A stretch of DNA of 64,000 nt from positions 1-64,000 of IMG/VR virus record IMGVR_UViG_3300032236_000656. One strand, written 5' to 3'. Positions 9,018 through 59,800 of the stretch are shown in pieces. Under the pieces are notes generated by a model that was given only the letters and a program-made list of their open reading frames with translations, was not told the DNA's origin and ran no database searches. The position numbers and the translations under genes are program-made. The stretch's first letter is position 1. Each line of letters opens with the position of its first letter. This DNA is from a virus.

Positions 9018-9046
9018 TTGACTTTATTAAAATTTTGTTGTATTCT
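9018..9046 (+). promoter_or_regulatory. sigma70-type promoter TTGACT-17-TATTCT
   Basis: Consensus match in the intergenic region upstream of the clamp loader. Confidence 0.6.
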
Positions 9047-9063
9047 AATGCTAGAGGTTGAAA

Positions 9064-11361: not shown

Positions 11362-11515
11362 ATATTTGTGTTCTCCCGGAGCGTTGTTGAATGTTGTTGC
11401 TCAAAATTATTTAAGTACTTGTTCAAAAGAGTTATCAATACACATATCTTTTGACTCGAACGGCATAATTTATATTACTTGATTGTTATCGTGCTACATG
11501 GATAAATATTATACC

Positions 11516-14006: not shown

Positions 14007-14834
14007 ATGACACATTATGCAACACTGGGAGTAGCAGATTCTGCTACTCCTGAAGAAATCAAATCTGCTTATAGAAAATTAGCAAAACAACATCATCCCG
14101 ATTTAGGAGGAGATGTTACAAAATTTCAACAAATCAGTGAAGCATATGAAACACTGAATGATGCTGATAAACGTGCTCACTATGATCACCAATTAAGAAA
14201 TCCGCAACCTCAGTTTCATCATAATCCTCATGATATATTCAATGATATCAATGACCATTTTAGTCAAATGTTTGGATTTAATTTTCGTCATGCACAACAG
14301 GTTCCACGCAATCGTAATATAAGAATTCAGTTAACTTTAGATTTCTTAGAAACATTAGATGTATGTCAAAAGACTATCGAATTTAATTTAAGTAATGGCA
14401 CGGAAAGAATTACATTAGATTTGCCTGCAGGCATAAGCGATCAAACAGTATTGCAAATGGCTGGTAGAGGCGACAATGCTATTCAATCAGTTCCAAGAGG
14501 TACATTAGAAATAGTAGTTAAGGTAACACCCCATCCTAAGTTTACTAGAATAGAAGATCATATTATTACTGATGTCACAATAGATTGTTTTCAAGCAATT
14601 GTTGGAACTGAAGTTGATATTACAACACCAAGAAATAGAAGAATAAGATTGAATATTCCTACCGGAACTCAAAACGGAACACAATTTGGAATAACTGATG
14701 AAGGTTTTGCTCGGTTCAATAAAACTATGGGAAAACTTATTGTAAAGGTAAGTGTATTGATTCCCACTGCATTAACATCTGATCAAATTAATTTAGTACA
14801 ACAGATTCAGTCGCTGCGGCCGGTAAATACTTGA
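14007..14834 (+). CDS. dnaJ: DnaJ/CbpA-type co-chaperone (no Zn finger)
   Basis: J-domain YATLGV..IKSAYRKLAKQHHPD plus DnaJ C-terminal domain. Confidence 0.92.
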   Translation: MTHYATLGVADSATPEEIKSAYRKLAKQHHPDLGGDVTKFQQISEAYETLNDADKRAHYDHQLRNPQPQFHHNPHDIFNDINDHFSQMFGFNFRHAQQVPRNRNIRIQLTLDFLETLDVCQKTIEFNLSNGTERITLDLPAGISDQTVLQMAGRGDNAIQSVPRGTLEIVVKVTPHPKFTRIEDHIITDVTIDCFQAIVGTEVDITTPRNRRIRLNIPTGTQNGTQFGITDEGFARFNKTMGKLIVKVSVLIPTALTSDQINLVQQIQSLRPVNT

Positions 14835-14859
14835 CACAATGCTTATGCATTGCTATATT
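14831..14859 (+). promoter_or_regulatory. sigma70-type promoter TTGACA-17-TATATT (TAAATA also at 14824)
   Basis: Consensus match directly upstream of clpA. Confidence 0.65.
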
Positions 14860-14867
14860 TGTAAGTG

Positions 14868-17108
14868 ATGAAACAGATTTATAGTTCAAACGGCGATATA
14901 GATAAAATTGTAAAAGCTGCTCGCGAGTATGCTAAAGAATTCAATCATGAATATTTCATGGTTGAGCACCTACTACTCAGTTTAGTACATGAACGTCATT
15001 TTAATAGTTTGTTAGATGAACTGGGTGTACAAACTAGTCTCTTAATTGAAGAAATCGAAGCATATCTATTAACAATTAATGTATATGCTAACGAAGATGT
15101 GCAGGACGATTTAAAGAAAACCGCCAGTTTAGAACGTGTTTTCAATCGTGCTTTTACTCAAGTAATTTTTAGTGGCAGAAAACAAATCAATTTGATTGAT
15201 CTGTATCTAAGTATTACTAACGAAACACACAGCCATGCTGCTCATTTCCTACAGAAATATGGTGTAGAGAAGGAAGAGGTTGTAAAGAGTTGGACTAAGC
15301 AGCGTAAGGGCAAAACTAATAAGAGTTATGCCGAAAAAGTTCTCGAAAATTATTGTACGAATATGATGACTCTTGCTGGTGAAGGACGTATAGATCCTGT
15401 TATCGGCAGAGATATGGAAATTCATGATCTTGTACAGATTCTAGCAAGGAAGAATAAGAGCAATGTTCTATTGGTCGGCGACGCTGGCGTTGGTAAGACT
15501 GCTATCGCAGAGGGCTTAGTATTAAAAATTGTTGATGACGATGTACCAGAATTCTTAAAGGGTTGGAAGGTATACAGTCTTAATATTGGGCAGTTACTTG
15601 CTGGCACAAAGTATCGTGGTGAATTTGAAGAAAGATTACAAGAAATTCTAACTGCTGCTCAAGACATGAAGAATGTTATTCTCTTCATTGATGAAGCACA
15701 TCAGATGCGTGGTGCCGGCGGCGGCAATAATAGTGCTGTTGATTTGGCCAATATGATTAAGCCTGCACTTGCTCGTGGCGAGATCAAAGTAATTGCATCC
15801 ACAACTTGGGAAGAATACACTCAGAATTTCGAAAAAGATCGTGCATTAATGCGTCGATTTAATAGAATTTCAGTTGACGAACCTAGTGCTGCTGTTGCCA
15901 TTCAAATTTTAGAAGGTATTCGTGACAATTACGAAGGCTTTCATAATGTTGAAATTACTGATGCAGCAATTAAAGCCGCAGTTGAATTAAGTATTCGTTT
16001 CCAAAACGACAAGAAGTTGCCAGATAAGGCAATTGACTTAATCGACAGTGCGGCTGCGTTGAAGCGCAGTACTGATGCAGTTGATCGTCTAATCGATGTT
16101 GTACAGATTCAACGTGAGATTAGTCGTATGACAGGTATTCCTGTTAACCAAATGGAAGAACAAAAGAACAGTGTTGATATTTCAACAGTTGAGACTGATA
16201 TTAAGCATCGTGTTTATGGTCAGGATACTGCTGTTGATCAAATATTAGATCGAGTATGGGTCAACCGTGCCGGTCTTAAGAGTAATAATCGCCCAGTTGG
16301 TGCTTTCCTCCTACTTGGTCCAACTGGCACAGGTAAAACAGAACTTGCTAAGACACTAAGCGAAAGACTTAGTATGAAGTTTATTCGCTTTGATATGAGT
16401 GAATACGGCGAGCGACATAGTGTTAGCCGTTTGATTGGTGCACCTCCTGGCTACGTTGGCTATGAGGATGCTAACTTGGCTGGTGGTCTGCTCATAAGTG
16501 AGGTTGCTAAGAATCCTCATGCCGTTATCTTGTTTGATGAGATAGAAAAAGCACATCCGGAAGTGGTCCAGATTCTGCTACAGATTATGGACGAGGGGTT
16601 TGTAACGGGCTCTAACGGCAAGCGAGCAGACTGCCGCCAAGCAATTATTCTATTAACAAGTAATTTAGGTGCTGCTGATAACGAACGTAATCGTATTGGA
16701 TTTAGTTCGCTTGAACGTACAGGAGAAGATGATGCTGCTGTTAAGGAATTCTTCCGTCCTGAATTTAGAAATCGTTTAGATGCAGTTATTAAATTCAATA
16801 AACTTAATAAAGAAACTATTAAGAAAGTTGCAGGCAAATTCATTGCTGAAATGCAAACTCAACTAATTGACAAGGATATGTCAGTTGAGTTAGATGAAAC
16901 TGCTTGGGAGTATCTTATTAAGAATGGCTATGATCCACAAATGGGTGCAAGGCCAATGGCAAGACTGATACATGAGAAAATTAAAGTTCCTCTGGCTAAG
17001 AAAATACTGTTTGACAACTTGTCTAACGGTGTTATAATTAAGGTCAGCGCCGTTGGCGACGAAGTGGAGCTGTCAGTTGGACAAGAATCAATACCTACAG
17101 AAGTTTAA
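14868..17108 (+). CDS. clpA: ClpA-like AAA+ unfoldase
   Basis: Clp N-domain, two Walker A motifs (GDAGVGKT, GPTGTGKT), RLIGAPPGYVG, IGF ClpP-docking loop. Confidence 0.93.
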   Translation: MKQIYSSNGDIDKIVKAAREYAKEFNHEYFMVEHLLLSLVHERHFNSLLDELGVQTSLLIEEIEAYLLTINVYANEDVQDDLKKTASLERVFNRAFTQVIFSGRKQINLIDLYLSITNETHSHAAHFLQKYGVEKEEVVKSWTKQRKGKTNKSYAEKVLENYCTNMMTLAGEGRIDPVIGRDMEIHDLVQILARKNKSNVLLVGDAGVGKTAIAEGLVLKIVDDDVPEFLKGWKVYSLNIGQLLAGTKYRGEFEERLQEILTAAQDMKNVILFIDEAHQMRGAGGGNNSAVDLANMIKPALARGEIKVIASTTWEEYTQNFEKDRALMRRFNRISVDEPSAAVAIQILEGIRDNYEGFHNVEITDAAIKAAVELSIRFQNDKKLPDKAIDLIDSAAALKRSTDAVDRLIDVVQIQREISRMTGIPVNQMEEQKNSVDISTVETDIKHRVYGQDTAVDQILDRVWVNRAGLKSNNRPVGAFLLLGPTGTGKTELAKTLSERLSMKFIRFDMSEYGERHSVSRLIGAPPGYVGYEDANLAGGLLISEVAKNPHAVILFDEIEKAHPEVVQILLQIMDEGFVTGSNGKRADCRQAIILLTSNLGAADNERNRIGFSSLERTGEDDAAVKEFFRPEFRNRLDAVIKFNKLNKETIKKVAGKFIAEMQTQLIDKDMSVELDETAWEYLIKNGYDPQMGARPMARLIHEKIKVPLAKKILFDNLSNGVIIKVSAVGDEVELSVGQESIPTEV

Positions 17109-20062: not shown

Positions 20063-21202
20063 ATGCGAGCAACAGAATTTCTTACTGAAGAATATGATCC
20101 AACCAAAGCAAGAGTACCTCACCCTGAAGATGAGGTACTTATTGGTGGTTCAGTAGGTGCTAAATCAGCCATTGCTGCAATTAAGCAGATGGCAACAAAT
20201 CCTGAAACAATTAGTATTAAGCCAGACGGTAAACCTGCTTTAATTTGGGGAAGAGACGAAAAAGGATTTTCTCTTGTTGACAAACATATGTTCAAAGCAG
20301 GAACATTACCACGTAATCCTAATGAACTAGCACAAGTTTATTCTGCTCGTAAAGGTGGCGGCAGAGAAGATTTAATTGCAATGATGACTGCACTTTGGCC
20401 TCAGTTTGAAGCAAGTGTACCAAATAGTTTTCGTGGGTGGCTATTTGGTGACCTACTATACAGTCAAACCCCTCCAATTCAAAACAACAATTTTGTGTTC
20501 AAACCTAATACCGTTGTATATACAGTTGCTACTAATAGCGAATTAGGGCAGCAGATGGCAAAAAGTACATCTGGTATTGTTGTACATACATTCTTTTCAA
20601 AAGCACCAGGAATGGATCCACAAGGTCAATTTGTTGCTCCTCCAGGAAGACATATTAGTAAATTACCCGCAGCCATTAATAATAAAGGTCCATTATTAAT
20701 GATAACTGATCAATTCACAACTCCTCCTAGAGTTAAACTTCCGCCTGATCTAAAGTCTATTGAAAACTTTATTACTTCTAATGGTGCTGTAATGGATAAG
20801 TTCTTAGACGAAGCAACATTGACATCATTGAAGATAAAAGATCTTCCTTCATTGCTACAAGCATACGGCAATTATAGAGTTAAGCAACGTAATTTTGATA
20901 ATTTTGGTAGCGATTTTATTACTGATTTCTTAGCAAGCAAAAAAGTAAGTCCGCAAAAGATGAATAATATTCAAAAATATATCGAAGCAAATAGAGCAGG
21001 ATATAAAGTATTGTGTCAGGCATTTATTGGTATAATGCGTGTTAAGGATCATATTGTTAATAATCTAGACGCACACCCTGCTCAAATGCAAGCACATATT
21101 AATGATGTACCAGGGCAGGAAGGATATCTTGTTCATACTAAAACTGGTCTATTCAAAACAGTTGACCGCGCAAAGTTCAGTGCTGCTAACTTTGAACATT
21201 AA
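20063..21202 (+). CDS. Ligase/covalent nucleotidyltransferase-like protein, probable internal head protein
   Basis: KPDG (motif I), GDLLY, EGYLV and FKTVDR motifs; N-terminal MRATEFLTE tag; late promoter at 20053. Confidence 0.65.
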   Translation: MRATEFLTEEYDPTKARVPHPEDEVLIGGSVGAKSAIAAIKQMATNPETISIKPDGKPALIWGRDEKGFSLVDKHMFKAGTLPRNPNELAQVYSARKGGGREDLIAMMTALWPQFEASVPNSFRGWLFGDLLYSQTPPIQNNNFVFKPNTVVYTVATNSELGQQMAKSTSGIVVHTFFSKAPGMDPQGQFVAPPGRHISKLPAAINNKGPLLMITDQFTTPPRVKLPPDLKSIENFITSNGAVMDKFLDEATLTSLKIKDLPSLLQAYGNYRVKQRNFDNFGSDFITDFLASKKVSPQKMNNIQKYIEANRAGYKVLCQAFIGIMRVKDHIVNNLDAHPAQMQAHINDVPGQEGYLVHTKTGLFKTVDRAKFSAANFEH

Positions 21203-21229: not shown

Positions 21230-24013
21230 ATGCGTGTAGAAGAACTTCATGAAGAAAATATTAAGAAAGTAGTTTTTACTTTTGGCCGATTGAACCCTCC
21301 ACATTTTGGACATCATGCATTAATCCAAACATTACAAAAAGAAGCACAGAAGCAAGGTGCCGATTGGTTCTTATTTGTCAGTGCTAAAACTGGCGATGAG
21401 AAGAATCCTCTTACATATGAACAAAAGATTTGGTGGATACAGGCATTATTTCCTGAGACTAAAGGACATATTGTCAATGATGCCAGTATCAAAACTCCAT
21501 TGATTGCTGCTACTTGGTTATACAAGCAAGGTTATCGTGCTGCTACCTTTGTTGCAGGCGAAGACGATATGTCCAGTTATGGAGAGATGATTAAAGGTGG
21601 CAATGCACATGGACAAAATAATCCAGATGCAGTTAAACAAGGTAAAGGATTTATTTTCAATCCATTAGACTTTGCTATTAGTCCACGTTTAGCCAGTGCT
21701 ACTAATGCTCGTAGAAATGTCACAGATGGTGATCCAGAAGCATTTGTTCGCAGTATACTTGGTCCTAAGATTAATCCGCGATTAGAAAAATTAGTGCATG
21801 ATCAATTGTATCCAACATTGCGTAAGGCAATGGGATTAAGTGAAAGCGTTGACGAAAGCGCAGAACTTAATAAGACTACTCCTAGTGTAAGAGATCTTGC
21901 TAAGAAGTATGCAACAGATCCTTCTACCATACATCATCAAGTCAACAGAGGTGTTAAGGTAGAATTTGAACATACAAACGACATCGAAGTTGCTACTGAA
22001 ATAGCAATGGATCATCTTGGTGAAAGATTGGATTACTACGATCTATTAGACAAGTTAGAGAAAACTCCAAAAAAAAAGTTTGGTGAAAACTTTGCTGATG
22101 GTAAAGGTCCGGGTAGACCAGGCGATAGTCAAAGACACAGTATCCCAAAAACAGTAGATGAAGCAATGTGGCCTTTCAAAAAGAAGAAAGCGCCAGAAAT
22201 GTCGGCGCCTAAGCGTTGGCCAGATCGTGATGATGATCTAGAACAATGGATGCGTGATAAGATTACACATTATAAGAGCAAAGGTTGGGATCCTGCTGTA
22301 TTCTTTAGTCCAGCTACTGGTGATTACTTCCCCATCTATTTCGCAACTGGCTTCAGATATAATGATGCTGCTAAACAAGCATACCGTAACATCAAGCGAG
22401 AGTTCCCAGATCTGGTCAAACGTGCTAGGGAAGAGATCAGCACTCCAATGGCAATGCGTATAAATCAAAGTAGAGTTGGTGATCACGAAGATTGGCCAGA
22501 AAATTCCCCTAGTGTATATGAGAACTTCGCTGATGGTAAAGGACCCGGACATCCTGGGGACAGTCAGCGTCATGGCATCCCAAAGAAAGCAACAATAGCA
22601 CAGTTAGAGAAAGCAAGTCATGCTAAAGGTCGTAAAGGACAATTAGCACGTTGGCAACTGAACATGCGTCGTGGTAAGAAGAAAGCCAATGAAGAAATAA
22701 CTAACGAAGTTGCAGATCAGCCATATCGTTTTATTTCACCAGTAAGTACTTCAACCACACAAAAATCTATATTCCAAACTGATGGCGGCGCAAGAATGCA
22801 GGTCGCCATTATGATACCTCAAAATTCTGATACTGCACATATTGGCTTTTATGATGCCACTGATCAAGATAATCCTACAATAGCAGTAACAGGCAAGGGA
22901 GATGCTTTCCGTGTGTTTGCTACTGTAGGTGCTATCGTAAAGCAGTTTGTTGACAAGCGTAAGCCACCCTACATTAATTTTGCTGGTAAGTCATCTGAAT
23001 CAGGTCGTATTAAATTATATGATATGATTGCCAAGAACATTGGTCGTTATCTACCAGATTATAAGTTGGTTGATACTGGCATGGTCTCAGGCGGTGATAA
23101 AGGATATGTGTTTCAGAGAGTAGCACAAGAAAGTGTAGTTGAAGAAAAGAAACCTAAAAAGCCAAAAACTATTATTGACGGTGCGTTAAAGACATTGATT
23201 GCTAAAGGCCGTAGCGAAGATGAAGCAATTGCTGATCTAAAGAAAGAAATCGACAGCAAGTTTTATGATTTGGATGAATGGTCTCCTATGGAGATAGCAA
23301 TTATGGAAGGTGGTCATCTATTGGATGATTACGATGAGAATTTAGAAGAAACACTTAAAAAAGTTAAAGGCAAGTGGGCTTTGGTCAGTAGACAAAATCC
23401 TAAAAAGGTGTTACAATACTATCATGGTAGTCAACATCCTAGCAAGGAATGGGTGAACAAAGTGGAACGCAGAGTTCATAGTTTTGAAAGTGTAATGGAA
23501 GATGATTCGGTTAAGCCTCGTGTTTACCTAGACATGGATGGCGTGCTTGCTGACTTCTTTGGAGAATGGTCAAGATTAGCAGGAGTTGATCATTATAAAG
23601 ATATTAACAATGCAGAGGAATCATTACAGTTAGTGAGAGATCATCCAACATTTTGGGTTGATCTTCCTATGCTGCCTCATGCAAAAGCATTAGTAAAAAC
23701 AGTTATCGAAAAGTATGGTGAATATAGAATTTGCAGTAAACCACTAGAAGGTGATGATCGCAGTAAACCCGGCAAGATGGCATGGATTAAGAAACACTTA
23801 AGTGACATGCCTCCTGTTGAAGTTGTATTAACTGCGGACAAAGCAAAGTATGCAATGCACGAAGGCGTGCCAAGTATACTTGTTGATGACTTTGGCGTTA
23901 ACATTAACGCTTGGAAGACATCTGGTGGTATTGGCATCAAGTATGATGACTCGGCATTTCCGCAAGTTGAAAAGATACTGGAAAAGATTGCCAAGTCTGG
24001 AGTTCTAAAATGA
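21230..24013 (+). CDS. Multi-module internal head polyprotein (HxGH nucleotidyltransferase, several small modules, HAD 5'-nucleotidase-like domain)
   Basis: FTFGRLNPPHFGH; GVKVEFEHT..EIAMDHL.E..DYY; VYLDMDGVLADF..LVDD; linkers such as LSESVDES and SFESVMED; late promoter at 21203. Confidence 0.75.
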   Translation: MRVEELHEENIKKVVFTFGRLNPPHFGHHALIQTLQKEAQKQGADWFLFVSAKTGDEKNPLTYEQKIWWIQALFPETKGHIVNDASIKTPLIAATWLYKQGYRAATFVAGEDDMSSYGEMIKGGNAHGQNNPDAVKQGKGFIFNPLDFAISPRLASATNARRNVTDGDPEAFVRSILGPKINPRLEKLVHDQLYPTLRKAMGLSESVDESAELNKTTPSVRDLAKKYATDPSTIHHQVNRGVKVEFEHTNDIEVATEIAMDHLGERLDYYDLLDKLEKTPKKKFGENFADGKGPGRPGDSQRHSIPKTVDEAMWPFKKKKAPEMSAPKRWPDRDDDLEQWMRDKITHYKSKGWDPAVFFSPATGDYFPIYFATGFRYNDAAKQAYRNIKREFPDLVKRAREEISTPMAMRINQSRVGDHEDWPENSPSVYENFADGKGPGHPGDSQRHGIPKKATIAQLEKASHAKGRKGQLARWQLNMRRGKKKANEEITNEVADQPYRFISPVSTSTTQKSIFQTDGGARMQVAIMIPQNSDTAHIGFYDATDQDNPTIAVTGKGDAFRVFATVGAIVKQFVDKRKPPYINFAGKSSESGRIKLYDMIAKNIGRYLPDYKLVDTGMVSGGDKGYVFQRVAQESVVEEKKPKKPKTIIDGALKTLIAKGRSEDEAIADLKKEIDSKFYDLDEWSPMEIAIMEGGHLLDDYDENLEETLKKVKGKWALVSRQNPKKVLQYYHGSQHPSKEWVNKVERRVHSFESVMEDDSVKPRVYLDMDGVLADFFGEWSRLAGVDHYKDINNAEESLQLVRDHPTFWVDLPMLPHAKALVKTVIEKYGEYRICSKPLEGDDRSKPGKMAWIKKHLSDMPPVEVVLTADKAKYAMHEGVPSILVDDFGVNINAWKTSGGIGIKYDDSAFPQVEKILEKIAKSGVLK

Positions 24014-24023
24014 GGAGCGTAAC

Positions 24024-24290
24024 ATGCGTTGCACCAATGATAGAGACTGGGATCAGATCCTTACAATATGGGAGAATTTCTCTCTAATAGAACCTATCAA
24101 TATAAAGACTGTGGAAATAAAACGCCAAGCAGTTGAATACTTGGGCATCGATAATCATCACAAATTAAACAAACACGAATTAAGATCCTTGTTAAGCAAG
24201 GCACATAAAATGAAAAACAGCACGAAAAAAGAAGAACGTGCTAGAGGGAACGAATTAGAAAAACAACTTCTAAGCGTTTTTAACTACTAA
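24024..24290 (+). CDS. Hypothetical protein
   Basis: SD GAGGAG; ORF. Confidence 0.55.
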   Translation: MRCTNDRDWDQILTIWENFSLIEPINIKTVEIKRQAVEYLGIDNHHKLNKHELRSLLSKAHKMKNSTKKEERARGNELEKQLLSVFNY

Positions 24291-24297
24291 GTAATTG

Positions 24298-24588
24298 ATG
24301 GAATCATTACTAAGAGTTAGAATTAAAGTACCCGAATCATCAACTAAAAATGGTAGATATAGACTTTGGCTTGATAAATTTATGTTGATCGAGCGTATAT
24401 ATCCTATTGAAATTGGCAGTTATCTTCAATTAGAAGAAATTGTTCATGTTAAATTATCCCCTGGCATACACCATATAAAGATTGAAAATTTAGAGTTGGA
24501 AACGCAAGCAATTATAAATGCTGTGGCAATTAATGATACAATATATCTCAATTTATCCACTTTAGTTCAATCTTTCGAATTACGATAA
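24298..24588 (+). CDS. Hypothetical protein
   Basis: ORF; TAAGTA late-promoter variant upstream. Confidence 0.55.
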   Translation: MESLLRVRIKVPESSTKNGRYRLWLDKFMLIERIYPIEIGSYLQLEEIVHVKLSPGIHHIKIENLELETQAIINAVAINDTIYLNLSTLVQSFELR

Positions 24589-24613
24589 ATATTTTCAACA
24601 CAGGATTTTCCAG

Positions 24614-25663
24614 ATGAACGAACGACACGTTAAACTCCTTACCCAGCGTTATGCCGTTGAACAGCGCATTCGTGAATTACAAAATACAACAATATCAGAG
24701 TCAAATAGATCAGCAGCAGATGCATTGCTTGCTAAACTTCATGCTACACTTGCTAGAATTAATGAAAGTTCTGAAGTTGTTGAACTCAGTATTCCTTCAA
24801 GAGATAATAGCAATGATCACGAAATGGGACATCACCATCAAGAACTAGATCATGAAGTAGATATGGCACGTGCAGAATTACATCGTGCTGCACATTCTGC
24901 TATTGCACTTGGAAAAATTCTTGAAAGAATTAGCGAAGAACAAGGGTTAGAAGGTTGGGTCCAGGCTAAGATTACCAAGGCTGCTGATTATCTAGACAGC
25001 GTATATCATTATTTAGAATATGAGATGAATGCCAGTCATGATGTTGATGAAGGTGTTGCAGCATATGGCCCCGGCGAAGATCCAAATGATCCACAGTCTG
25101 CAAAGCCTCAGGCTCCTGGTGCACCACAACAAAATCCAAATGCACAGCAGCCTGGACAACAGAGTACAACTCCTCCTGCAGGTGGCTCAACTCCTGGATC
25201 CACAAGTCCAGGTATGGTAAAGATGGCTAAGTTGGACGCACAAAAGAAACCAATTGGCACACCACTAATGGTCAAGAGTGCAGAAATTGCAGCAAAGCAA
25301 AAGCAAGGTTTCTTCGTTATTGGTGAAAGCAAAGAAGAAAAGAAAGTTGCACACTGTTCACAGTGCGGTAAAGGATTTAGTGCATCGGGTGTAGATGCAA
25401 AGTATAAGACTGGATTTAGTCATTGTAAAGATCATAAGGGTATGAAAGTAATTGCAGAAGATGCAAGTGCTGGTGCGAGTAGTGCAGGTTCAATGGGAGG
25501 AAGTCCGACTGGATTTGCAAGCGGTGGCATTGGGATGCAGAAGCGTAAGAAAAAGAAGATTGGTGAAGAGACTGTAGAAAATGATGAACCAACTTTTACA
25601 GGCTACTGGAAAGGCAAGGACAAAGGTAAGCCTGGCAAGAAGATGGTAGGAAGTAGTACATAA
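24614..25663 (+). CDS. Modular probable internal head protein (helical module, CxxC..HCxxH Zn-finger-like module)
   Basis: Late promoter at 24586; ISES/INES/VDEG/IGES/IAED linkers. Confidence 0.65.
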   Translation: MNERHVKLLTQRYAVEQRIRELQNTTISESNRSAADALLAKLHATLARINESSEVVELSIPSRDNSNDHEMGHHHQELDHEVDMARAELHRAAHSAIALGKILERISEEQGLEGWVQAKITKAADYLDSVYHYLEYEMNASHDVDEGVAAYGPGEDPNDPQSAKPQAPGAPQQNPNAQQPGQQSTTPPAGGSTPGSTSPGMVKMAKLDAQKKPIGTPLMVKSAEIAAKQKQGFFVIGESKEEKKVAHCSQCGKGFSASGVDAKYKTGFSHCKDHKGMKVIAEDASAGASSAGSMGGSPTGFASGGIGMQKRKKKKIGEETVENDEPTFTGYWKGKDKGKPGKKMVGSST

Positions 25664-26856
25664 TGCGAATTAACGAAGTAGCAACTTATTCATATATTGA
25701 AGAAACAAGCCAACTATTTCAGGCTCTTGCTCTTCGTCATACTATGCTAGTAGAGGGTCAACTAGACGAAGCAGGTGTGTGGGATATTGTTAAAGGAACA
25801 GTTGGCGGCGTAATGAAAGGCATTAAAACTGCCGATGATGCCATTAACAAACTTGGTCGTCTTGTTCAGCAAACTAAACCTGTTGAAGAATTTGATACTA
25901 AAGTTGATGCTGTTGTTGCTGATCTTAAACAAAAATTAGGTGCTAAATCTCCTAAAGCCGTTGCAACTGCTGAGAAGTATGCTGCTTGGGCTAAAGAACA
26001 TCCCATTAAACAAGGTCTTATCATTGGTGCATTAACTGCTATTGCTGCTCTTGCTGTTGGTCCTGGTGCCGCAGCGGCCGCTGGATTTATTCTTCGTGCA
26101 ACAAATGAATATATGAAAGGTGAAAAGGCATCAACTGCGATTGGCAAAGGTGTAAAGTCTGCGGCAGTTGGTGCTGCATTAGGTGCTCTTGCAAATGCTG
26201 CTATTCCTGAAATTGGAGAGATGTTTAAGTTAGCCAAACCTATATTAAAAGATGTACCTGGCTATAATGCATTAACAACATTTAATGCAACATATATATT
26301 TAACGGAAATCCGTTAGTTAACATTTCAAGAATGATGGATGATGATTCTATTAAAAAATATTATGCTCTTACTAAAGAATTAGATGCAGCATTAACTGAA
26401 ATGACTGCTTGGCATCAAGATGGAACTAAAGTTGGTCCTGAAAAAGCTCAACAAGCCTTGGCTAAAATTAAAAATTTCTTGAACAGCAAAGAATTAAACG
26501 AAAAAGTAGCAGACATACTAGCAAACAATGCTTCTGTAGTTGATAAACAGGCAGCGGCTCAAAAAGCTTACAATGCTGCCTTAGCAACTGCCACAACAAC
26601 TAATACTCAAATTGATAATGTAATAAAAATATTAAAACAAGTATCTACTGCTGGCGCTGCTGGTACAGCCGCTAGCGGATTAGCAGGAAAAGCAGCAGGA
26701 GCAGTTAAAGGTGCCGCTGGTGCTGCAAGAGATAAATTTAGAGACTTTGTTCCAAGTAAAACATTTAAAACTGTATCACAGCAAATTAAAGATCTACAGC
26801 CTGCTGACAAGCAGAAGTTAGTATCAATATTAAAGCAAGAACTCGCAACAGCATAA
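25663..26856 (+). CDS. Probable internal/ejected protein with hydrophobic helical hairpin
   Basis: MRINEV tag; LVEGQLDEA linker; GLIIGALTAIAALAVGPGAAAAAGFIL. Confidence 0.65.
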   Translation: MRINEVATYSYIEETSQLFQALALRHTMLVEGQLDEAGVWDIVKGTVGGVMKGIKTADDAINKLGRLVQQTKPVEEFDTKVDAVVADLKQKLGAKSPKAVATAEKYAAWAKEHPIKQGLIIGALTAIAALAVGPGAAAAAGFILRATNEYMKGEKASTAIGKGVKSAAVGAALGALANAAIPEIGEMFKLAKPILKDVPGYNALTTFNATYIFNGNPLVNISRMMDDDSIKKYYALTKELDAALTEMTAWHQDGTKVGPEKAQQALAKIKNFLNSKELNEKVADILANNASVVDKQAAAQKAYNAALATATTTNTQIDNVIKILKQVSTAGAAGTAASGLAGKAAGAVKGAAGAARDKFRDFVPSKTFKTVSQQIKDLQPADKQKLVSILKQELATA

Positions 26857-26869
26857 GGGAGTATCAATC

Positions 26870-27016
26870 ATGGCAAAGGCAATCAAAGAAGTAAAGTTAG
26901 AAAGAGTTAAGAATAATAAAGGCACAAGCCAAGGTATTGGCAACCTTAAGATGAGTTCAATGAATAAACATACAAAGCGCAGTTTTAAGAAATATAGAGG
27001 CCAGGGTAAACCATGA
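26870..27016 (+). CDS. Small basic protein (48 aa, not in ORF track)
   Basis: SD GGGAG; MAKAIK...SSMNKHTKRSFKKYRGQGKP resembles small basic proteins of T4-like phages. Confidence 0.7.
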   Translation: MAKAIKEVKLERVKNNKGTSQGIGNLKMSSMNKHTKRSFKKYRGQGKP

Positions 27017-28188
27017 GAATAAGTGAGATATTAGAAGCAAATTATTGGAAGGCAGACAAAACTTTTAGACAAAAGCGTTTGCCAACATTAGAGCCTGATC
27101 CAGTAGATAATGCTGAAAGATTTGATGCTGCTAAACATGATCAAGCAGATGATCACGGTCCAGAGATCGATGTTAACAATGCTCAAATGAGAGCAGCAAT
27201 AACTCAATTGTTATTGAAGTTACCACCAAGACTCGAACGTATTCTTAGAGAAAGATTCTTCTTAGATAAAACATTAGAAGAAATTGGTGCAAAATATAAT
27301 ATATCTCCAGGTAGAATTAGACAACTGGAAGCAAAGGCATTGAGACTGTTAAAGCATCCTAGTCGTTCTAAACAACTAAAGTCAATGCTACAAACCAGTA
27401 CTCAAGAAGCAGCCAACCCTGCACAACAAGCAGCCATTGCTATCAATATGAAAAAGCATGGTAAGAAGCCTAAAGATGACATGGACGAAGCCAAGCAACG
27501 CCTAGATCCAAAATGCTGGACTGGTTATCATAAAGCCGGTACTAAGATGAAGGGTGGCATCAGAGTTAATAACTGTGTCAAGGATGAAAGCATCAATGAA
27601 TTTGCCCCAGACGAAGGTCCAGAACGTGATGATGGCGGCAAGCCAGAATTCATGTCATGGGAAGACTTTGTTGCCGCAGTTGCTAATCTGACTAAGTCTG
27701 CTTTTGATGTTAAGATTGGTTTCAAAAATAAGAAACTAAACAAGACACAAGCAGCAGCAAAGTTTATTCCACACGATCCATTTGAATTTGGACCTGTATC
27801 CTTGTATGCTTTTAAGGATCGCAGACCTCCTTACCGTGTAGGTGTTAGGGCACATATGCAGATTGGTGCATACAGCAAACACGGAGAACAACTTCTTAGT
27901 CAGTATAAGATCCCGCAGAACAATCTACGCGAAGTCTTGATGACCCCTGCAAATGCAACCAGGATTGCTCATGCTATCATGCAGAATACTAATGGAGCAT
28001 TGAAGGAAAGTGTTGAAGAATCAAGCGGTCACATTCCTAAAAACGAAAAAGAAGCACATGATCCACGTTGGTCCAATGCTTTAACTGTTGATATTGGTCC
28101 TGGTGAAGATAAGAAACAAGCTGCTAAGTTTGGTTTTAAGGTAAGTAATAGTGGTCCACCCAAACTACGAGCAAATGGAAAATTCTAA
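27013..28188 (+). CDS. Modular internal head protein containing an RpoD-like sigma70 region 4 domain
   Basis: LPPRLERILRERF..KTLEEIGAKYNISPGRIRQLEAKALRLLKHPSRSKQLKSML; MRISEILE tag. Confidence 0.75.
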   Translation: MRISEILEANYWKADKTFRQKRLPTLEPDPVDNAERFDAAKHDQADDHGPEIDVNNAQMRAAITQLLLKLPPRLERILRERFFLDKTLEEIGAKYNISPGRIRQLEAKALRLLKHPSRSKQLKSMLQTSTQEAANPAQQAAIAINMKKHGKKPKDDMDEAKQRLDPKCWTGYHKAGTKMKGGIRVNNCVKDESINEFAPDEGPERDDGGKPEFMSWEDFVAAVANLTKSAFDVKIGFKNKKLNKTQAAAKFIPHDPFEFGPVSLYAFKDRRPPYRVGVRAHMQIGAYSKHGEQLLSQYKIPQNNLREVLMTPANATRIAHAIMQNTNGALKESVEESSGHIPKNEKEAHDPRWSNALTVDIGPGEDKKQAAKFGFKVSNSGPPKLRANGKF

Positions 28189-28541
28189 TGCGTGTTAAAG
28201 AAATTATGGAAGCAGTGATGTCGGTTGGTGTACAGTCTAAACATCCTATCAGCGCAGGTGCTCGTGGATTAATGGGCGCACGTTTTCGTTATGATCTTGC
28301 AGTTGAAAATAATGCAAACGACAGCGATAAAAATGCAGTTGATCAACTTGAACATAATTTAAAGTATATTCCAAAAACTGACTACGATCACATTGATATG
28401 CTAATGCAGACTATCTGCGAAAAATTTAGAATTGAACCTAAAAAATTGCATGATATGTTTATTCAAAAATTTAATTGCACTCCTGACGCTTATGCTATAA
28501 ACTATAAGAAGTCAAGAGAAGGTCAGCCAAGAAAGATCTAA
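28188..28541 (+). CDS. Probable internal head protein
   Basis: MRVKEIMEA tag; coupled ORF. Confidence 0.6.
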   Translation: MRVKEIMEAVMSVGVQSKHPISAGARGLMGARFRYDLAVENNANDSDKNAVDQLEHNLKYIPKTDYDHIDMLMQTICEKFRIEPKKLHDMFIQKFNCTPDAYAINYKKSREGQPRKI

Positions 28542-28560
28542 CCCTTGACATAAAGGGTTA
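28539..28560 (+). terminator. Hairpin at the end of the internal-protein operon
   Basis: taaccctt-gacata-aagggtta 8-bp stem. Confidence 0.4.
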
Positions 28561-39582: not shown

Positions 39583-39611
39583 TTGACAAACCAGTGTGCT
39601 CATAGTAATAT
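39583..39611 (+). promoter_or_regulatory. sigma70-type promoter TTGACA-17-TAATAT, probably leaderless
   Basis: -10 element ends 6 nt before the ATG at 39618; no SD. Confidence 0.7.
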
Positions 39612-39617
39612 AACACT

Positions 39618-46604: not shown

Positions 46605-46658
46605 CGGTTGACAGCGTGGGTAAATACTGTATACTAAAAATAGTCCAAAAGGAGGGCT

Positions 46659-51083: not shown

Positions 51084-51195
51084 CATATATGTAACAATTG
51101 TAATAGTATTTGTTACAGTTGGGCTGCTTTTTTGGGCAAGATTTGGACAAGAAATCTACTGGGATCTGCTAGTTCTTGCTCAAATGTGCTTCTAA
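50992..51195 (+). CDS. Small membrane protein (true start probably downstream)
   Basis: Hydrophobic segment IYVTIVIVFVTVGLLFW. Confidence 0.35.
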   Translation: MHGKGMLHLQVMLTPCGNAKFVLKTSAVIRNIYVTIVIVFVTVGLLFWARFGQEIYWDLLVLAQMCF

Positions 51196-51258
51196 TTCAA
51201 TGACTTAGCACAAAATCTTTTTGGTTGACGTATCCCCTATTGGTGCTATTATAAGTGT

Positions 51259-53835: not shown

Positions 53836-56800
53836 TTAATTCCAAAACTGAATTGGTGCAACAGTTTTGGCAGCAACATCAATCACGCCTTTGCCTAATG
53901 CCGCAGTTTGAAATTTAGTTACTATTCCTTGTGTAGCATCAAAGTATAACGGTTCGTTAGTAGACCCTATAAGAGAACTTCCATTTAGTAATGTAGCATA
54001 GTATAAGTTCTCTCTAGTATTAGTTGGCGGCATATTAGTTCTTATCAATGATTGAGGAATTACTTCTGGATCCCAAAGAGTTGCAGTCCAAATATTATTG
54101 ATGTTTAAGTTCGTAAGATAAGTTGAAGCCAGCGATACAATGAAACTGGTTGTAGTAGATACTATAGTTGAATTGATAGGTGCAAGTGCCTGATTGTTTG
54201 TGATACTGTCTGTCAGTAATAGATAATCATTGACCTTTGGCGGTACATTTCCAGCGACACTTGTGCTTGCTGTTGTTGTTACAGTACCAACATTCGTAAT
54301 AATATTATTTGGGGTATTATATGTTGTTGTCACTGAAGTTGTATTAGTAATAGGGAAGGTATTAATACTTTTATCAATGATTGTAGCATCTTGTAATGTT
54401 AATAATGATACATTAGATGCTGATGCGCCTTGGCTGGTTGTTGTTAAAGGACCACTCGGTGTAAAGTTTTGAGTATATAATGCTTGGCCCTTCACAATAC
54501 GGAAGTTTGAAATATAACCTGGAAAATTCCAAACAGGACTTGCAGAATCACCATTTGCACCAATGATAATGTTTTCAGTACTAGCAGGCGGTGTTCCATT
54601 TGCGGCAGGATTACTCTGTTGATAACCATTGATATAAAGATACCAAGTTGAGCCACTTCTGACCCAAGCAACATGGGTCCAAGTATTAAGAGAAGCAGCA
54701 CCAGCATAACTTCCTGATGCTAATATACTGTTACTTACTTGAATATACCCATCTGCCCCAACTGTTATTAACCAAGATCTACCATTAGCTAATCTATATT
54801 GTCCAGTTAATCCAAATGGAGCACCTGTAAAAGATGTTGGATACATCCAAAATTCAAGAGTAAAATCATTAGCATAACCAGCAACACCAGCAGCATTGGG
54901 TGCATAAAGATATTGACTAGAACCATTAAATGAACCGTAATATGTCGGTGATGATGGATTCATATATGTTATTAAATAATAAAAGGCATTATCAATAAAG
55001 GTTGAATTCTGTAAAGTTAGTAGGCTAGTTTCAGAACCAGTTAATGCTAAAACATTAGTTCTAGTATTCTGTGTGATACTTAATGGACCTTGAGGAGTAA
55101 AGTTACCAGTATATGCTGCTACACCTTTAACTATGCGAAGGTTTGAGACGTAACCATTAAGTTGGTAATTCACGTTAGCTGCGGTATCATAACCAATAGC
55201 AAGTGTAACAGCACTAGCAGTTGGTAGTGTAATGGCCGTTGGCCCTCCACTTAGAGTACCGTTAATATATATACTTGCAGTTCCAGCAGTACAAACTACA
55301 GCAACATGGTACCAAATATTTGTTGTAATAGCTGAGGTAGCACTAGTAACACCAGGCGGCGAACCGTTTGGAACATATGCACTAATTGTTCCACCTGGGT
55401 TAAGAGCAACATAAAATGAGTTAGCAGTACCATTAGTGCCAAATAGTAGAATACGACATTGATTTCCTGCTGTAACATTAGTTAAAGTGTAAAACCAAAA
55501 TTCTATAGTCCAAGTACCACTAGAAAGATCAAATGCCAAAGAAGATGGAATAGTTAATCTATTAGCATTAAAAACACCGTAATAAGTAGGACCCAGCGTC
55601 ATATAATTAACATTACTAACGGCATTATTAAATGATAATAAAGTATTGGTTCCGCTTGTAATTTGAGAAACTGGTGTTGGATAAAGTATAGCAGGTTTTG
55701 GACTTGCTTGTCCTACAATAATATCATATACAGTTTTATTAGTATTGTCATACCAATATGTTCCATCAATAATTGAAAGTTTATCAGCAGCAGGAGTATC
55801 AAATGTTTGATTTTTTGTTGCTGGTTCTTTAAATTTAGTAATCGAAGTGACTGCTCTATTATCATTTATAGTTACTGGAGATTCAAATGGAAATCTTCTG
55901 CCATATCTACCTCTTGCTAAAGTAGTATAATATAAATTCTCACGAGCATTTTGTGGACTTAAGTTTGTTAACACATTTGACTGTGCATACAAATCAGGTT
56001 CCCAAATTTGATATGTCCAACTATTCGCAGTATTTAAATTTGAAATATCAGATGATGCTAAGGTGATTGAAATTTGTGTAGAAGTTACTATTGTTTGATC
56101 AGTTGCTAATGTACTTGGGAAACTTCTGCCAGTTCCCCACATAATTCTAACTGCACCAACACCCGCTGTTCCTGGAGATCCAGCGCCGCCTTGGTTATCA
56201 GTTGATCCAGCGCCACCACCGTATGTCCCGCCACTACCGCCGCTGTGTGTTCCATTAGGTACAGTTACCGAAGCCGTGCCACCAGAGCCGCCAACACCGC
56301 CGCCGCCATTAGCTGGATAAGTTGTACCTGTTGCAACTGCACCTCCTGTACCATTTGTGATACTTGCTGGCGCGACTCCAACACCACCACCACCACCACC
56401 ACTGCCGTAAGGAGCAGCGCCTGCGGGATTAGTGCCACCGCCTGCGCCGCCACCGCCACCGCCTCCAGTACTTGCTGCGCCCGCTGTAACAGTACCCGTA
56501 GAGTATGCACCATTGCCGCCGTTGCCGCCTGCGCCATTGTAGCCGCCAGCGCCGCCGCCGCCGCCACTACCAATGCCACCCGATGCAGTACCACCAGTAC
56601 CACCGCTTCCGCCGCCAAATGTTCCATAGGCATTAGAGGCTGTGAACGTTCCTCCTGCCGCAGTACCTGTGTTAAGAATACCGCCACCACCACCACCACC
56701 AAATACAGTAGTATTGTTAATGAAATAACTGTCCCCGCCGGGAGAAGCATTTGCGGCGCCGTTTTGTACAGGTCCTCCACCACCAACAACAACTGTATAA

Positions 56801-59800
56801 GTGTTGCCAGGCACAACAGTAATATTATTAACCCACGCTAAACCACCGCCGCCGCCACCGCCAGTTACACTAGTACCACTACAAGAGCCGCCACCCCCAC
56901 CTACTGCAACAGCACTAACACTTGTAACACCCGCAGGTGCAGTAAAGGTATATGTATATTGATTATTGACTGGTGTTGGTGCTACTATAGATCCAAAAGA
57001 ACCCGATGCACCTGTAGGAGTATATAATTGTTGTCCTGTGGAAATGTAGTTTGTAGAAGTAGTTGATACAATAGATGCCAACGCTTGATTATTAGTTACC
57101 GTATCGGTTACTAGTACATAATCACCAACAATAGGAAATGTGCCCAATGTATTTGTTGTAATCGAACTAGATATTGTAGTATTTCCACTAACAGTTGTTT
57201 TATTAATGACTGAAGAAACACCCGATACTCTTGGACTAGAATTACCAACAGCAATTCTATTTGGATTATTAAAATAAGTCCAAGGTGTACTGATATTAGA
57301 AAGCCTGTAAGTATTAGGAATTTGAACAGGAGTTTTTACAACTTCTATTCTCTTTTGTAAATTGTTTATATCAAATTTATAGTCCTCGCCAGGGATACTT
57401 GTTGGCATTTCAAATGGGAACCTTCTACCATATCTACCTCTTGCTAAAGTAGCATAATATAAATTCTCACGAGCAGTTTTTGGACTTGTATTTGTTATTA
57501 AGTTTGATTGAGGGAGTAAGTCTGCTCCCCATAACTGATATGCCCAAGCGTTGTTAATATTTAAATTTGATACACTTGTTGTTGCAACTGTAATAGTTAT
57601 TAATGGAAAATCTGCAGAATCTGCTAACAAAGTAGAAGGATATGATCTACCTTGACCCCATACAATCCTAACTGCGCCGCCAACACCACTGCCAGTAGAG
57701 CCACCGGCTCCGCCGCCATATGAAGTTCCTGAACCACCCGATCCTGCAACACCAGCAACCCCTTGTGCTCCTCCAGTACCAGTTGTACCGATTCCAAGTA
57801 AGCCAACGCCGCCGCCTGCTCCCCCTTGCACACCGCCACCGCCACCTGCGCCTGAATTAGCATCTCCATTGTTACCACTTAACGCACCCGATGCACCATC
57901 TCCGCCGCCTTGGCCACCGTTTCCTGCATAGCCGCCAGCGCCACCACCGCCTCCAGCGCCATAAGTACCAGCGTAACCACCTCTGCCGCCATTACCGCCG
58001 CCATCACCAACATATGTGCCGCCGGAGTTACCACTATTAAGTGAAGAAGCAGTACCACCACCTCTACCTGCCACAGTAGTTGCATTAATAAAATAACTAG
58101 TTCCGGCACTGGCACTGCCAAATACACCTCCGCCGCCAGTTACTACACTATATGTTTGCCCAGGCACAACTGTAATGTTATTTTTCCAACCAAGGCCGCC
58201 GCCACCGCCAGCAGTACCTGATATACCTGCGCCGCCTGCGCCACCAATAGCAACAGCACTAACACTTGTAACACCTGTTGGTGCAGTCCAAGTAAAGGTA
58301 CCGGTACCAGTGTTTACTATGCTAGATCCAGTTGTTACGTTTGGATAAATTGCTACCGATTGTCCTGCGGGACTAACTGATGCACTTGAAATACTGACTA
58401 TCTGTGCCAATGCTTGATTGTTTGTTACTGTGTCTGTTATTAAAACATAATCATTCACAAAAGGTACAGTACCTAATGCAGCACCACTTAGTGTGGTTGT
58501 TACTGCACCTGTATTGGTTATAGTAAAACCACTTCCGCTATTGGCAGTACTATTATCAATTATAGTAGAATTTTGTAATGTTAATAAAACAGTTTCAGTG
58601 CCACCTAAAGCAGCAACATTTAGTCTAGCAGTCTGTTTAGTGCTCAATGGACCAAGTGGAGTAAAGTTACCTGTATAAACTGCTACGCCTTTAACTACAC
58701 GTAGATTAGAAATATATCCAGTTGTTAAAAAAGTTAACCCATTTATTCCATCAATTTGTAGAGCCTGCGAAGATACAGATATATTTTGTGCCAGTCCGCT
58801 AGAATAAACCTGACTTCCATTAGAATATAATCTTATTGTTCCGTTACTTCTTACAGCAGCAATATGATACCAAGTATTAGTGTTTCCTAACCCACCGTTA
58901 CTTTCAACAAACGTAGTTGTTGATCCATCTGATATGCCAAATCTTAGATTAGTTGCTGCTGTAGCACCTTGGGTAAATACCCATGCGCTAGTTGCTGCTG
59001 TTCCCGTCCATGGTCCAACAAATGCTGCTGATGTTGCGGCTGTTGTTATATAAACCCAACATTCTACAGTAAAATCACCAGTTCCAAATGCAAATCCTAT
59101 ATTAGCAGGAACTGTTAGATATTGACTACTACCATTAAATGTACCATAATAAGTTAGCCCATTTGTAATATAATTTATGTTTGAACTAGGATTAAAGATG
59201 TTTAATACAGTATTGGATCCACTTATTGTTTGATATGTTACTGCGGTATTATTAAAAAGTCTTGGACTATTAGTTCCAACAGCAACCAAATTTGTATTAG
59301 CAGGATATGTCCAATAACTTGAATTAAAATCCGACAGTCGATAATTAACATCGATGTTAACAGGCAACTTAACAATTTCAAATTGCTTCTGTAGATTACT
59401 CGATTTTACTGTTTCAAATATTTGTGTGTTAGTATAAGGAACTTTTAATTTTAGTATGTTATTAACATCTAATACAATATCATCTCTAGGTGTTGGATTT
59501 TTGACGATATGAAGTTGTTTTTGTAAATTGTTTACATCATATAGAATGTTATCTCGTGGAGTTGGGTTTTTAACAACATGAAGTTGTTTCTGTAAATTAG
59601 TTACGTTATATACAACATTATCACGAGGGGTTGGATTAATGCTGATCGTTTTGAATTTAGATGGATATGTTACATCGAATAAAATATTATCATTTGAATT
59701 TGGATTTTTAACAATAACAAGTTGTTTTTGTAAATTGTTTACGTCATATACAGTAGCATCTCTTGGAGTTGGGTTTTTAACAACATGAAGTTGTTTTTGG

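Follow-up and report, generated by a model that had tools for sequence, protein, structure and literature searches.

Why would a bacteriophage protein carry the promoter-reading end of a bacterial primary sigma factor, set between two sites that resemble those cut by a prohead protease? The question is raised by a 391-amino-acid (aa) open reading frame (ORF) at 27013-28188 on the plus strand of a 64,000-nucleotide stretch (the window), taken from the start of a viral record of 72,693 bases (IMGVR_UViG_3300032236_000656) that is rated 21% complete. An initial annotation had read the N-terminal part of this ORF as a free-standing RpoD region 4, releasable as virion cargo. We find that the domain is a genuine RpoD-type fragment within a mosaic protein, and we propose, tentatively, that it would be loaded into the phage head, cut free, and ejected to act on host transcription.

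There is no doubt about what the domain is. Positions 27013-27410 (plus strand) read through without a stop, giving 132 residues (MRISEILE|ANYW... to ...QTSTQE) at the N terminus of the ORF, with no in-frame start upstream. Behind an 8-residue leader, the sigma region 3.2/4 module spans residues 9-132 (27037..27408, plus strand; 14.3 kDa, pI 9.8) and consists of a conserved, disordered N-terminal extension (residues 9-55) and the region 4 fold (residues 56-127). Pfam Sigma70_r4 (PF04545) matches residues 67-115 (E 7.3e-14; 51.5 bits against a cut-off of 24.1), a six-frame search of the record gives the same match, and the PHROG family phrog_351, "RNA polymerase sigma factor," matches the ORF at E 1.3e-18. 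Against solved structures, phmmer returned 64 distinct chains at E <= 0.01, the best of them all group 1 sigmas; the top chain, RpoD 7ye1_F (2.2e-14), pairs residues 56-127 of the query with its own last 76 residues, KHPSRSKQLKSML included. That segment corresponds to the conserved group 1 tail after helix 4.2, (K/R)HPSRS...L..(F/M)L, and aligns with RpoD C termini (KHPSRS...L..ML). A profile built from 16 phage copies matched RpoD at 1e-30, SigB at 8e-17, and RpoS at 4e-12, and it also aligned part of the upstream extension to sigma region 3.2. The AlphaFold model has helices at residues 50-67, 72-82, 88-95, and 99-114, with pLDDT of 74-88 over residues 60-115 and residues 11-50 disordered; searched with Foldseek, it retrieves sigma chains only, of the sigma70/SigA kind (42 matches at E <= 0.001, best 1.2e-4). 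Residues 9-132 are confirmed as a genuine primary-sigma (RpoD-type) region 3.2/4 fragment.

The rest of a sigma factor is missing. Pfam finds no region 2 or region 3 family in the 391-aa ORF, and region 2 (PF04542) is absent both from the 72.7-kb record and from a 92% complete relative, G001, in a search whose controls were positive in 10 of 14 genomes. The ORF is not a complete sigma factor, region 2 having been tested for and found absent. The initial annotation was thus right in seeing primary sigma region 4 with the RpoD tail and no region 2 between the ILE/A and TQE/A sites. Its description of the match to RpoD as close needs a correction: compared with Escherichia coli sigma70 RpoD, the window copy has a 4-residue deletion in the turn between 4.1 and 4.2 and reads SPGRIRQ in place of TRERIRQ. 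"Free-standing" is correct as to region 2 and incorrect as to the gene, the domain being one part of a multi-module ORF; the sigma domain would stand free only if the protein were cut. The fragment does not point to one host: the best solved matches span 57.1 to 49.4 bits, less than 8 bits apart, the best chain being identical in sequence to Caulobacter crescentus sigma73 entries.

The module is under purifying selection. Compared with the copy in L001, dN/dS is 0.18 over 191 codons and 0.23 over residues 56-127, a rough estimate from one pair. We can hardly credit that the phages captured a piece of rpoD and now carry it as a relic without function; the two recognition-helix substitutions in the window copy would suit such a relic, but the dN/dS of the fold, the persistence of 29 distinct modules with invariant Q589 and R596, and the recurrence of the module in at least five phage contigs, in different fusions, all speak against it.

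How is the sigma module held within the protein? A search with the 391-aa ORF returned 3,210 relatives at E <= 0.001, and the best 120 of these, which are the homologues listed and counted below, share pieces of the ORF in many different orders. We read the ORF as a beads-on-a-string mosaic of a leader, the sigma module, and four other modules, with putative hydrophobic-x-Glu|Ala sites at the joints. The leader, MRISEILE (27013..27036, plus strand; residues 1-8), is a candidate capsid-targeting sequence ending at an I-L-E|A site. After the sigma module come, on the same strand, a short basic peptide module, AANPAQQAAIAI... (27409..27489; residues 133-159; the AANPAQQ module), a two-cysteine basic mini-module, KQRLDPKCW...NNCV (27490..27600; residues 160-196), a module of unassigned fold (27601..28020; residues 197-336), which is 56-85% identical to parts of P0004-P0012 in other architectures, and a C-terminal module, SGHIPKN...GPPKLRANGKF (28021..28185; residues 337-391). 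The AlphaFold model of residues 193-391 is unusable (pLDDT 39.6), and an atlas look-up of residues 193-341 gave no named match.

The joints are strikingly regular. Both sites flanking the sigma module are present, ILE|A at residues 6-8|9 and TQE|A at residues 130-132|133. The AANPAQQ module occurs 86 times in the listed homologues, preceded by Glu in 86 of 86 and beginning with Ala in 85; the residue at P3 is V in 29, I in 28, M in 10, T in 9, Y in 5, and another in 5 (V, I, or M in 67/86), these occurrences not being independent, as many come from related proteins. KQRLDPKCW modules number 107 in the same homologues and follow either the leader directly or an x-x-E junction, while the SGHIPKN module recurs C-terminally in P0003, P0006, and P0014 and internally in P0047 and P0048. 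In 28 tabulated proteins, the sigma module has the same type of junction on both sides or else ends the protein. One relative, P0004 (265 aa), consists of the leader joined straight to the equivalent of window residues 132-390 (75% identity), with exactly the sigma module absent. This shows the sigma module to be a clean cassette, set into a Glu|Ala joint.

The leader suggests where such a protein would go. A start of the form M-[KR]-x-x-[DE]-hydrophobic is found in 79 of the 120 listed homologues, and at the first x-x-E site of those leaders P3 is I, L, or V in 66 of 69 scored cases, with mostly Ala or Ser following the site; MRISEILE|A, MKAKEFITE|A, MKINELLNE|S, and MFITELFE|A are examples from the family. 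T4 leaders, taken from NC_000866, show the same pattern as MRISEILE|A: MKTYQEFIAE|A in IPII and IPIII, MAKINELLRE|S in gp24, and MELITELFDE|D in Alt. In the 72.7-kb record, the strict leader pattern begins four ORFs, all within 21230-28541, and a fifth leader lies at 20063. A review (PMC9026906) states that the first 10 residues of IPIII are enough for packaging, that gp21 cleaves after L/I-x-E, as was first observed between Glu and Ala, and that T4-like phages may load varied proteins by means of the leader. The feature in question, a leader of about 8-20 residues ending in L/I-x-Glu before a small residue, is present in our ORF, and its module junctions appear to fit the gp21 cleavage rule.

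A gp21-type prohead protease is encoded in G001, the DNA polymerase of which is 57% identical to that of the window. G001 has a Peptidase_S77 protein (93 bits; 33.5% identical to T4 gp21), and its gp23-type capsid protein carries LLAE|S three residues ahead of the conserved mature start. Three tandem leader paralogues of about 190 aa each lie directly beside its capsid gene, and about 10 leader genes, including one that encodes a GH19 lysozyme-type domain (E 3.5e-11), fill the interval from Clp to polymerase; the GH19 leader gene and the tandem paralogues are at L013:3142-4437 and L019:14187-15903.

Do other phages carry the sigma module in the same kind of protein? When residues 9-131 were compared with the full library, 328 proteins matched at E <= 1e-10. 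Five genes encode a leader and the sigma module only (P0123, 131 aa; P0124, 123 aa; P0139, 148 aa; P0141, 139 aa; P0266, 143 aa), and in other proteins an unrelated carrier has the module at its end or internally. Among the best 80 loci from IMG/VR, 49 are ordinary full-length rpoD with the region 2 motif and 31 are not; 5 of the 31 are truncated, and the 31 include a syntenic copy, L031. In L038/L039, L043, and L047, the sigma module is fused to a cytidylyltransferase, and the gene order there is that of the window: Clp-type ATPase, leader-gene cluster, DNA polymerase. These fusions connect the module to a known virion protein. The cytidylyltransferase domain encoded at 21230 in the window is 29% identical (E 2e-20) to the cyanophage protein T4-GC190 (S-SM1 SSM1_190), and the N-terminal cytidylyltransferases of two sigma-bearing ORFs match SSM1_190 at 38% (L047; E 1e-39) and 30.5% (P0269; E 6e-22). 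SSM1_190 itself begins MKKFSAFLNE|A. Mass spectrometry of purified S-SM1 virions has been reported to find T4-GC190 in them (Sullivan et al. 2010, PMC3037559), the supplement row for SSM1_190 reading "190 Cytitidyltransferase YES."

Taken together, these comparisons uphold the description of the module as releasable virion cargo, to the extent that comparison can: the leader, the Glu|Ala junctions, the indel in P0004, the genes with leader and sigma module only, the virion-linked fusions, and a late-type promoter motif described below all point that way. Packaging, cleavage, and injection are predictions well supported by such comparison, and for packaging and processing in particular we think it reasonably probable that they take place.

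Some sequences near this family deserve mention in their own right. A second class comprises leaderless region 3.2/4 ORFs without region 2 (L036, L044, L048, L051, L068, L071, L073, L079, and L087), which keep the full-length 4.1-4.2 turn and are 106-167 aa alone or 227-285 aa with extras. P0130 was considered as a full-length phage sigma ancestor and set aside, Pfam seeing region 4 only. P0011 (392 aa, on a 1,246-base contig) joins an Ala/Lys-rich N terminus resembling sigma region 1.2 (Pfam PF00140, precomputed) to modules of the type at window residues 197-391; it is either an assembly chimera or a further sigma-piece fusion. P0003 and P0012 are leader-bearing mosaics with a twin-arginine export signal (MSRRNFLRGAGAAAATGAAG...) in the middle of the protein (Pfam TAT_signal, precomputed for P0003). 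Such a signal makes sense only if the part upstream is cut off, and some cargo may be aimed at the host periplasm.

When would the protein be made? The sigma ORF is the fourth gene of a five-gene cargo operon on the plus strand (24614..28541; genes at 24614-25663, 25663-26856, 26870-27016, 27013-28188, and 28188-28541), in which genes overlap or nearly abut, with ATGA overlaps at 25663, 27013, and 28188, and in which the leader starts three of the five ORFs. An ATAAATA late-type promoter motif lies at 24585..24591 (plus strand), 23 nt upstream of the first gene, and a terminator-like hairpin, found as a pattern match only in a consensus scan, marks the operon end (28539..28560, plus strand; 8-pair stem, T-rich tail). 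Two more leader-bearing cargo genes on the plus strand precede the operon, each with its own ATAAATA motif: 20063-21202 (379 aa) and 21230-24013 (927 aa; cytidylyltransferase, DUF5661, DUF6934, and NT5C). The 72.7-kb record contains 16 copies of ATAAATA, of which 11 come 5-45 nt before a gene start, on the coding strand (binomial p ~1e-8 per strand), and the motif is depleted in the window overall (12 versus 29 expected); the sites precede minus-strand virion genes as well as leader genes 20063 and 21230 and gene 24614. For T4-like cyanophages, NATAAATA has been described as the late promoter (PMC2984593). From the motif shared with virion genes, we infer that the operon would be expressed in time for head assembly. 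The exact T4 late promoter, TATAAATA, had been tried and was dropped for ATAAATA, with 1 copy against 7.4 expected.

Several features of this operon region stand apart from the sigma question. In the 927-aa mosaic, NT5C is a deoxyribonucleotidase, and a 20-residue linker, ENFADGKGPG(R/H)PGDSQRH(S/G)IPK, is repeated twice. The 48-codon ORF at 26870-27016 (plus strand) fills the seeming gap ahead of the sigma ORF, encodes a very basic peptide (MAKAIKEVKLERVKNN...KKYRGQGKP), and overlaps the sigma ORF's ATG with its stop (ATGA); it may be an extra small cargo or a coupling gene. The 349-aa ORF at 24614-25663 (plus strand) has no leader, and it has in common with the sigma-bearing P0015 an N-terminal helical module (60% identity) and a C-terminal FTGYWKGKDKGKPGKKMVG end; the same carrier therefore exists with and without the sigma cassette. 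Farther along the window, two very large minus-strand virion genes (53836-61020 and from 61085 onward; 2,394 and 1,380 aa) have repeated matches to virion-structural and baseplate PHROG families, with ATAAATA or a near copy before each.

With these elements in place, we can imagine the following course of events. The 391-aa protein would be made within the five-gene operon from its late-type (NATAAATA) promoter, and the 8-residue leader would bring it to the prohead core. A gp21-type prohead protease would cleave after Glu8, after Glu132, and at the later junctions, leaving in the head a basic 124-residue fragment made of the region 3.2 linker and region 4 with the RpoD tail. This fragment would be ejected together with the DNA. 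In the new cell, its docking site could be the tip of the beta-flap in host RNA polymerase, or some other partner of sigma70 region 4, and there it would compete with the host sigma's own region 4, so that -35-dependent transcription would be weakened or retargeted before phage gene expression. We infer packaging, cleavage, ejection, RNA polymerase binding, and the effect on transcription from the comparisons given here; as to the chain as a whole, a packaged, cut, and ejected sigma fragment acting on host transcription, we lean very slightly toward doubt.

A good deal weighs against this proposal, or parts of it. The P3 residue of the TQE|A site is Thr, found at only 9 of the 86 junctions. 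With a deliberately loose site pattern, there is a TLEE match inside the sigma fold (cut after residue 89), and a cut there would destroy the domain unless folding protects it; a second loose match, LREV, falls in a later module. No prohead protease gene is found in the 72.7-kb record (21% complete). The sigma gene sits among replication genes, with the Clp-type ATPase on one side and DNA polymerase on the other, outside the head module. In G001, 59 of 120 ATAAATA copies lie before ORF starts, some of them of nonstructural genes; therefore, the motif indicates expression that is not early, and not one that is late in the strict sense. Among cultured relatives, the nearest examined is Agrobacterium phage Atu_ph07, in which the syntenic region from DnaJ and Clp to DNA polymerase is without leader genes; its published virion proteome is therefore uninformative here. 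Numbers are a further concern, since we would expect a few hundred injected copies at most, set against the cell's whole pool of holoenzyme. Finally, R584 and E585 of sigma70 are residues that read the -35 element. Where RpoD has these, the window copy has P584 and G585 (numbered from the alignment, with sigma70 ending at D613), making its reading of TTGACA doubtful, and over the 29 distinct leader-class modules in which we counted conservation, R584 is kept in 14 and E585 in 20.

The last point also argues against one idea in the initial annotation, that the module might mark the phage's many TTGACA promoters. The hexamer is not enriched in the window (44 copies versus 59.4 expected), and a scan for sigma70-type promoters over 18-33 kb gave 35 sites versus 49 expected. 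What does exist is a set of about five intergenic sigma70-like promoters, read by eye (TTGAC(A/T/G), about 17 nt, and a TAnnnT-type -10), at 9018-9063, 11362-11497, 39583-39617, 46605-46658, and 51084-51258; these probably drive early genes. With P and G in place of the two RpoD residues, marking of TTGACA promoters by the window copy is unlikely.

The timing of the operon and the pattern of variation could also be read without packaging. Within the cell that makes it, the protein might serve as an adaptor for middle or late transcription, its region 4 sitting on the beta-flap like T4 gp33, or, in a variant, as half of a split sigma supplying the upstream promoter contact for a phage gp55-type region 2 protein; the leader would then have some other role, such as recognition by the neighboring phage Clp-type ATPase. 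The non-early motif on the operon suits this idea, as does the constant position of the leader-gene cluster just downstream of Clp ATPase (and DnaJ-like) genes, and the 29 modules vary at positions 584/585 while retaining the DNA-backbone and flap-side residues, as a working promoter-recognition domain would. Single-helix-turn-helix "minimal sigma factors" are, moreover, noted in group 2 jumbo phages by Iyer et al. 2021 (PMC7824862). What this alternative leaves unexplained is why the leader should match T4 capsid-targeting leaders, why the module junctions should conform to the gp21 rule, and why the sigma module should be fused to homologs of a virion-detected protein. Furthermore, the relative G001 lacks any sigma module, the tblastn match there being to the AANPAQQ module, so the module is not a core transcription part. 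We regard an adaptor role as improbable, if still deserving of attention.

If the fragment is packaged, what would it do on arrival? T4 internal proteins bind DNA, and ours could be no more than a basic DNA-binding internal protein that condenses the DNA or travels with it, with no specific action on RNA polymerase. The fragment has a pI of 9.8, most sister modules are also basic, and the domain is a helix-turn-helix. Against this, most of the 29 modules retain the RpoD-specific HPSRS tail and L598/L607, and the region 3.2-like linker is kept as well. In sigma70, the tail and L598/L607 bind the beta-flap tip, not DNA, whereas Q589, R586, and R596 contact DNA. Among the 29 modules, Q589 and R596 are invariant (29/29), and R586 (27/29), L598 (27/29), E591 (27/29), R588 (25/29), and R562 (24/29) are nearly so. 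The retained tail and leucines would thus point to the flap, and the retained Q589, R586, and R596 to DNA contact. For a DNA-binding role there is also the precedent, described in a review (PMC9026906), of related basic proteins with capsid-targeting-like leaders in other T-even phages. We consider a purely DNA-binding role unlikely.

The same fragment could instead act as a packaged decoy for host proteins that bind region 4, be they Rsd-type anti-sigma factors, activators, or a defense sensor, with host sigma70 being freed for the phage's early sigma70-type promoters in slow-growing cells. K593 and R596 are contacts for anti-sigmas and activators. K593 is kept in 22 of the 29 modules and is Arg in 5 more, R596 is kept throughout, and the intergenic sigma70-type promoters of the phage need host sigma70; K597, however, survives in only 7 of 29, and to us a decoy seems decidedly unlikely. 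At the other extreme, in what may be called a "Sigma-4 swap," the injected fragment would displace host sigma region 4 from the beta-flap and become the holoenzyme's new upstream reader. From the first seconds of infection on, the phage-variable residues 584/585 (Q589, R586, and R596 being fixed) would steer host polymerase toward upstream elements particular to the phage. Were this true, the phage would deliver in its virion a trans-acting half sigma, and different modules would be phage-specific promoter codes; we think it quite unlikely. For the proposed competition at the flap, given packaging and in view of the alternative targets, a specific action on RNA polymerase seems to us somewhat less likely than not.

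What kind of phage is this? The window (38.5% G+C) encodes a family B DNA polymerase closest to that of Sinorhizobium phage Phosso (50.7%), followed by Atu_ph07 (47.7%), with a 349-kb Vibrio phage and the RaK2/GAP32 group also close, and a 353,857-base contig carries a protein identical to the 391-aa ORF. The window thus comes from an uncultured, aquatic, T4-related jumbo phage with a genome of about 350 kb, of which it is a fragment. According to Iyer et al. 2021 (PMC7824862), jumbo phages of this kind have no RNA polymerase of their own. A DNA-level search against phage records gave no match, and tblastn of the ORF against 50,697 phage records matched 22, in region 4.2 only; the sole longer match (H1) proved to be a bacterial dnaG-rpoD-rpoB fragment, not phage. 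It follows that no cultured phage among those 50,697 records carries the 391-aa ORF. About 3 kb upstream of the leader-gene cluster, the window has a DnaJ-like gene and a gene for a 746-aa Clp-type ATPase (14007-17108, plus strand; phrog_4871, E 4.5e-246). The Clp-type ATPase also precedes the leader-gene cluster in G001, L038, L043, and L047, and in Atu_ph07, DnaJ and Clp are adjacent without leader genes; it is possible that this chaperone pair is tied to cargo handling.

Phages are known to take over host transcription by three routes: enzymes that modify RNA polymerase, sigma- or core-binding proteins made after entry, and polymerases of their own. Delivery within the virion of the promoter-reading domain of sigma would, if true, be a fourth route, one of mimicry, acting before any phage gene is read. 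As the initial annotation supposed, this way of takeover appears undescribed; the literature searched contained no description of a packaged sigma fragment, the "minimal sigma factors" noted by Iyer et al. 2021 (PMC7824862) being the item to set beside it. More broadly, our findings would expose a large system in aquatic T4-related phages (3,210 related proteins), in which a conserved head-loading leader and cut-here junctions allow cargo modules to be shuffled like cassettes. Such a system supplies a ready list of candidates for injected effectors and a natural tool kit with which capsids could be loaded with proteins, and it permits a direct test of the power of a free region 4 over bacterial RNA polymerase.

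That leaves the relation to known systems. The closest is that of the T4 internal proteins IPI, IPII, and IPIII and of Alt, which share the short N-terminal leader of the same pattern, with hydrophobic-x-Glu before Ala or Ser. In both, a conserved leader is followed by hypervariable cargo; a T4-type prohead protease is found in the relative G001, and Alt, according to a note in the T4 record, is an injected protein that acts on host RNA polymerase. The 391-aa ORF appears to have the sequence-level features of T4-type capsid-targeted internal proteins. Unlike these, a single polypeptide here links as many as five cargo modules, every joint being a cleavage-type junction, and the cargo, known from its sequence alone, is a piece of host sigma and not an enzyme or nuclease inhibitor. 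What is new here is the cargo, a primary sigma fragment, and the cassette architecture with a junction at every joint.

The polyvalent proteins of phages and conjugative elements, attributed to Iyer et al. 2017, are said to be very large, multidomain injected proteins with enzymatic conflict domains; by that description, our ORF differs in being small (391 aa) and in having no enzymatic domain by Pfam. AsiA and MotA appropriation and gp33 in T4 act at the interface that sigma70 region 4 forms with the beta-flap tip and the -35 element, and the same interface would be targeted here. AsiA and gp33, which differ in fold from our domain, appear only after infection and are binders of region 4 or the flap, whereas here a copy of region 4 itself would be delivered. 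Pfam finds no AsiA domain in our ORF, only sigma region 4 families, and the ORF is not an AsiA-type protein (AsiA is summarized in PMC7824862).

Cyanophage T4-GC190 (S-SM1 SSM1_190, Syn9 gp184) has the same type of leader, was found in virions by mass spectrometry (PMC3037559), and is homologous both to the window ORF at 21230 and to the carrier domain of the sigma module in L047 and P0269; S-SM1 SSM1_190 and S-SM2 SSM2_161 differ in having no sigma module, and the passages of PMC3037559 consulted make no mention of a leader or of processing. The minimal sigma factors of group 2 jumbo phages, as described in PMC7824862, are likewise sigma-derived, single-helix-turn-helix proteins of phages without their own RNA polymerase, and the leaderless region-4-only ORFs (106-167 aa; L036, L044, L048, L051, L068, and L071) are also sigma-derived and lack region 2. 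Both differ from our ORF in having no leader, no junction motifs, and a full-length 4.1-4.2 turn, and packaging is proposed for neither. Giant phages of the phiKZ/SPN3US type, according to PMC5694885, also carry transcription machinery in the head, use a gp21-related protease that cuts after x-x-Glu, and eject the product; in them, a whole multisubunit polymerase is packed, and propeptides of about 80 to more than 100 residues are found on several head proteins. The phage described here would pack a sigma fragment only and would need the host enzyme for it to act upon.

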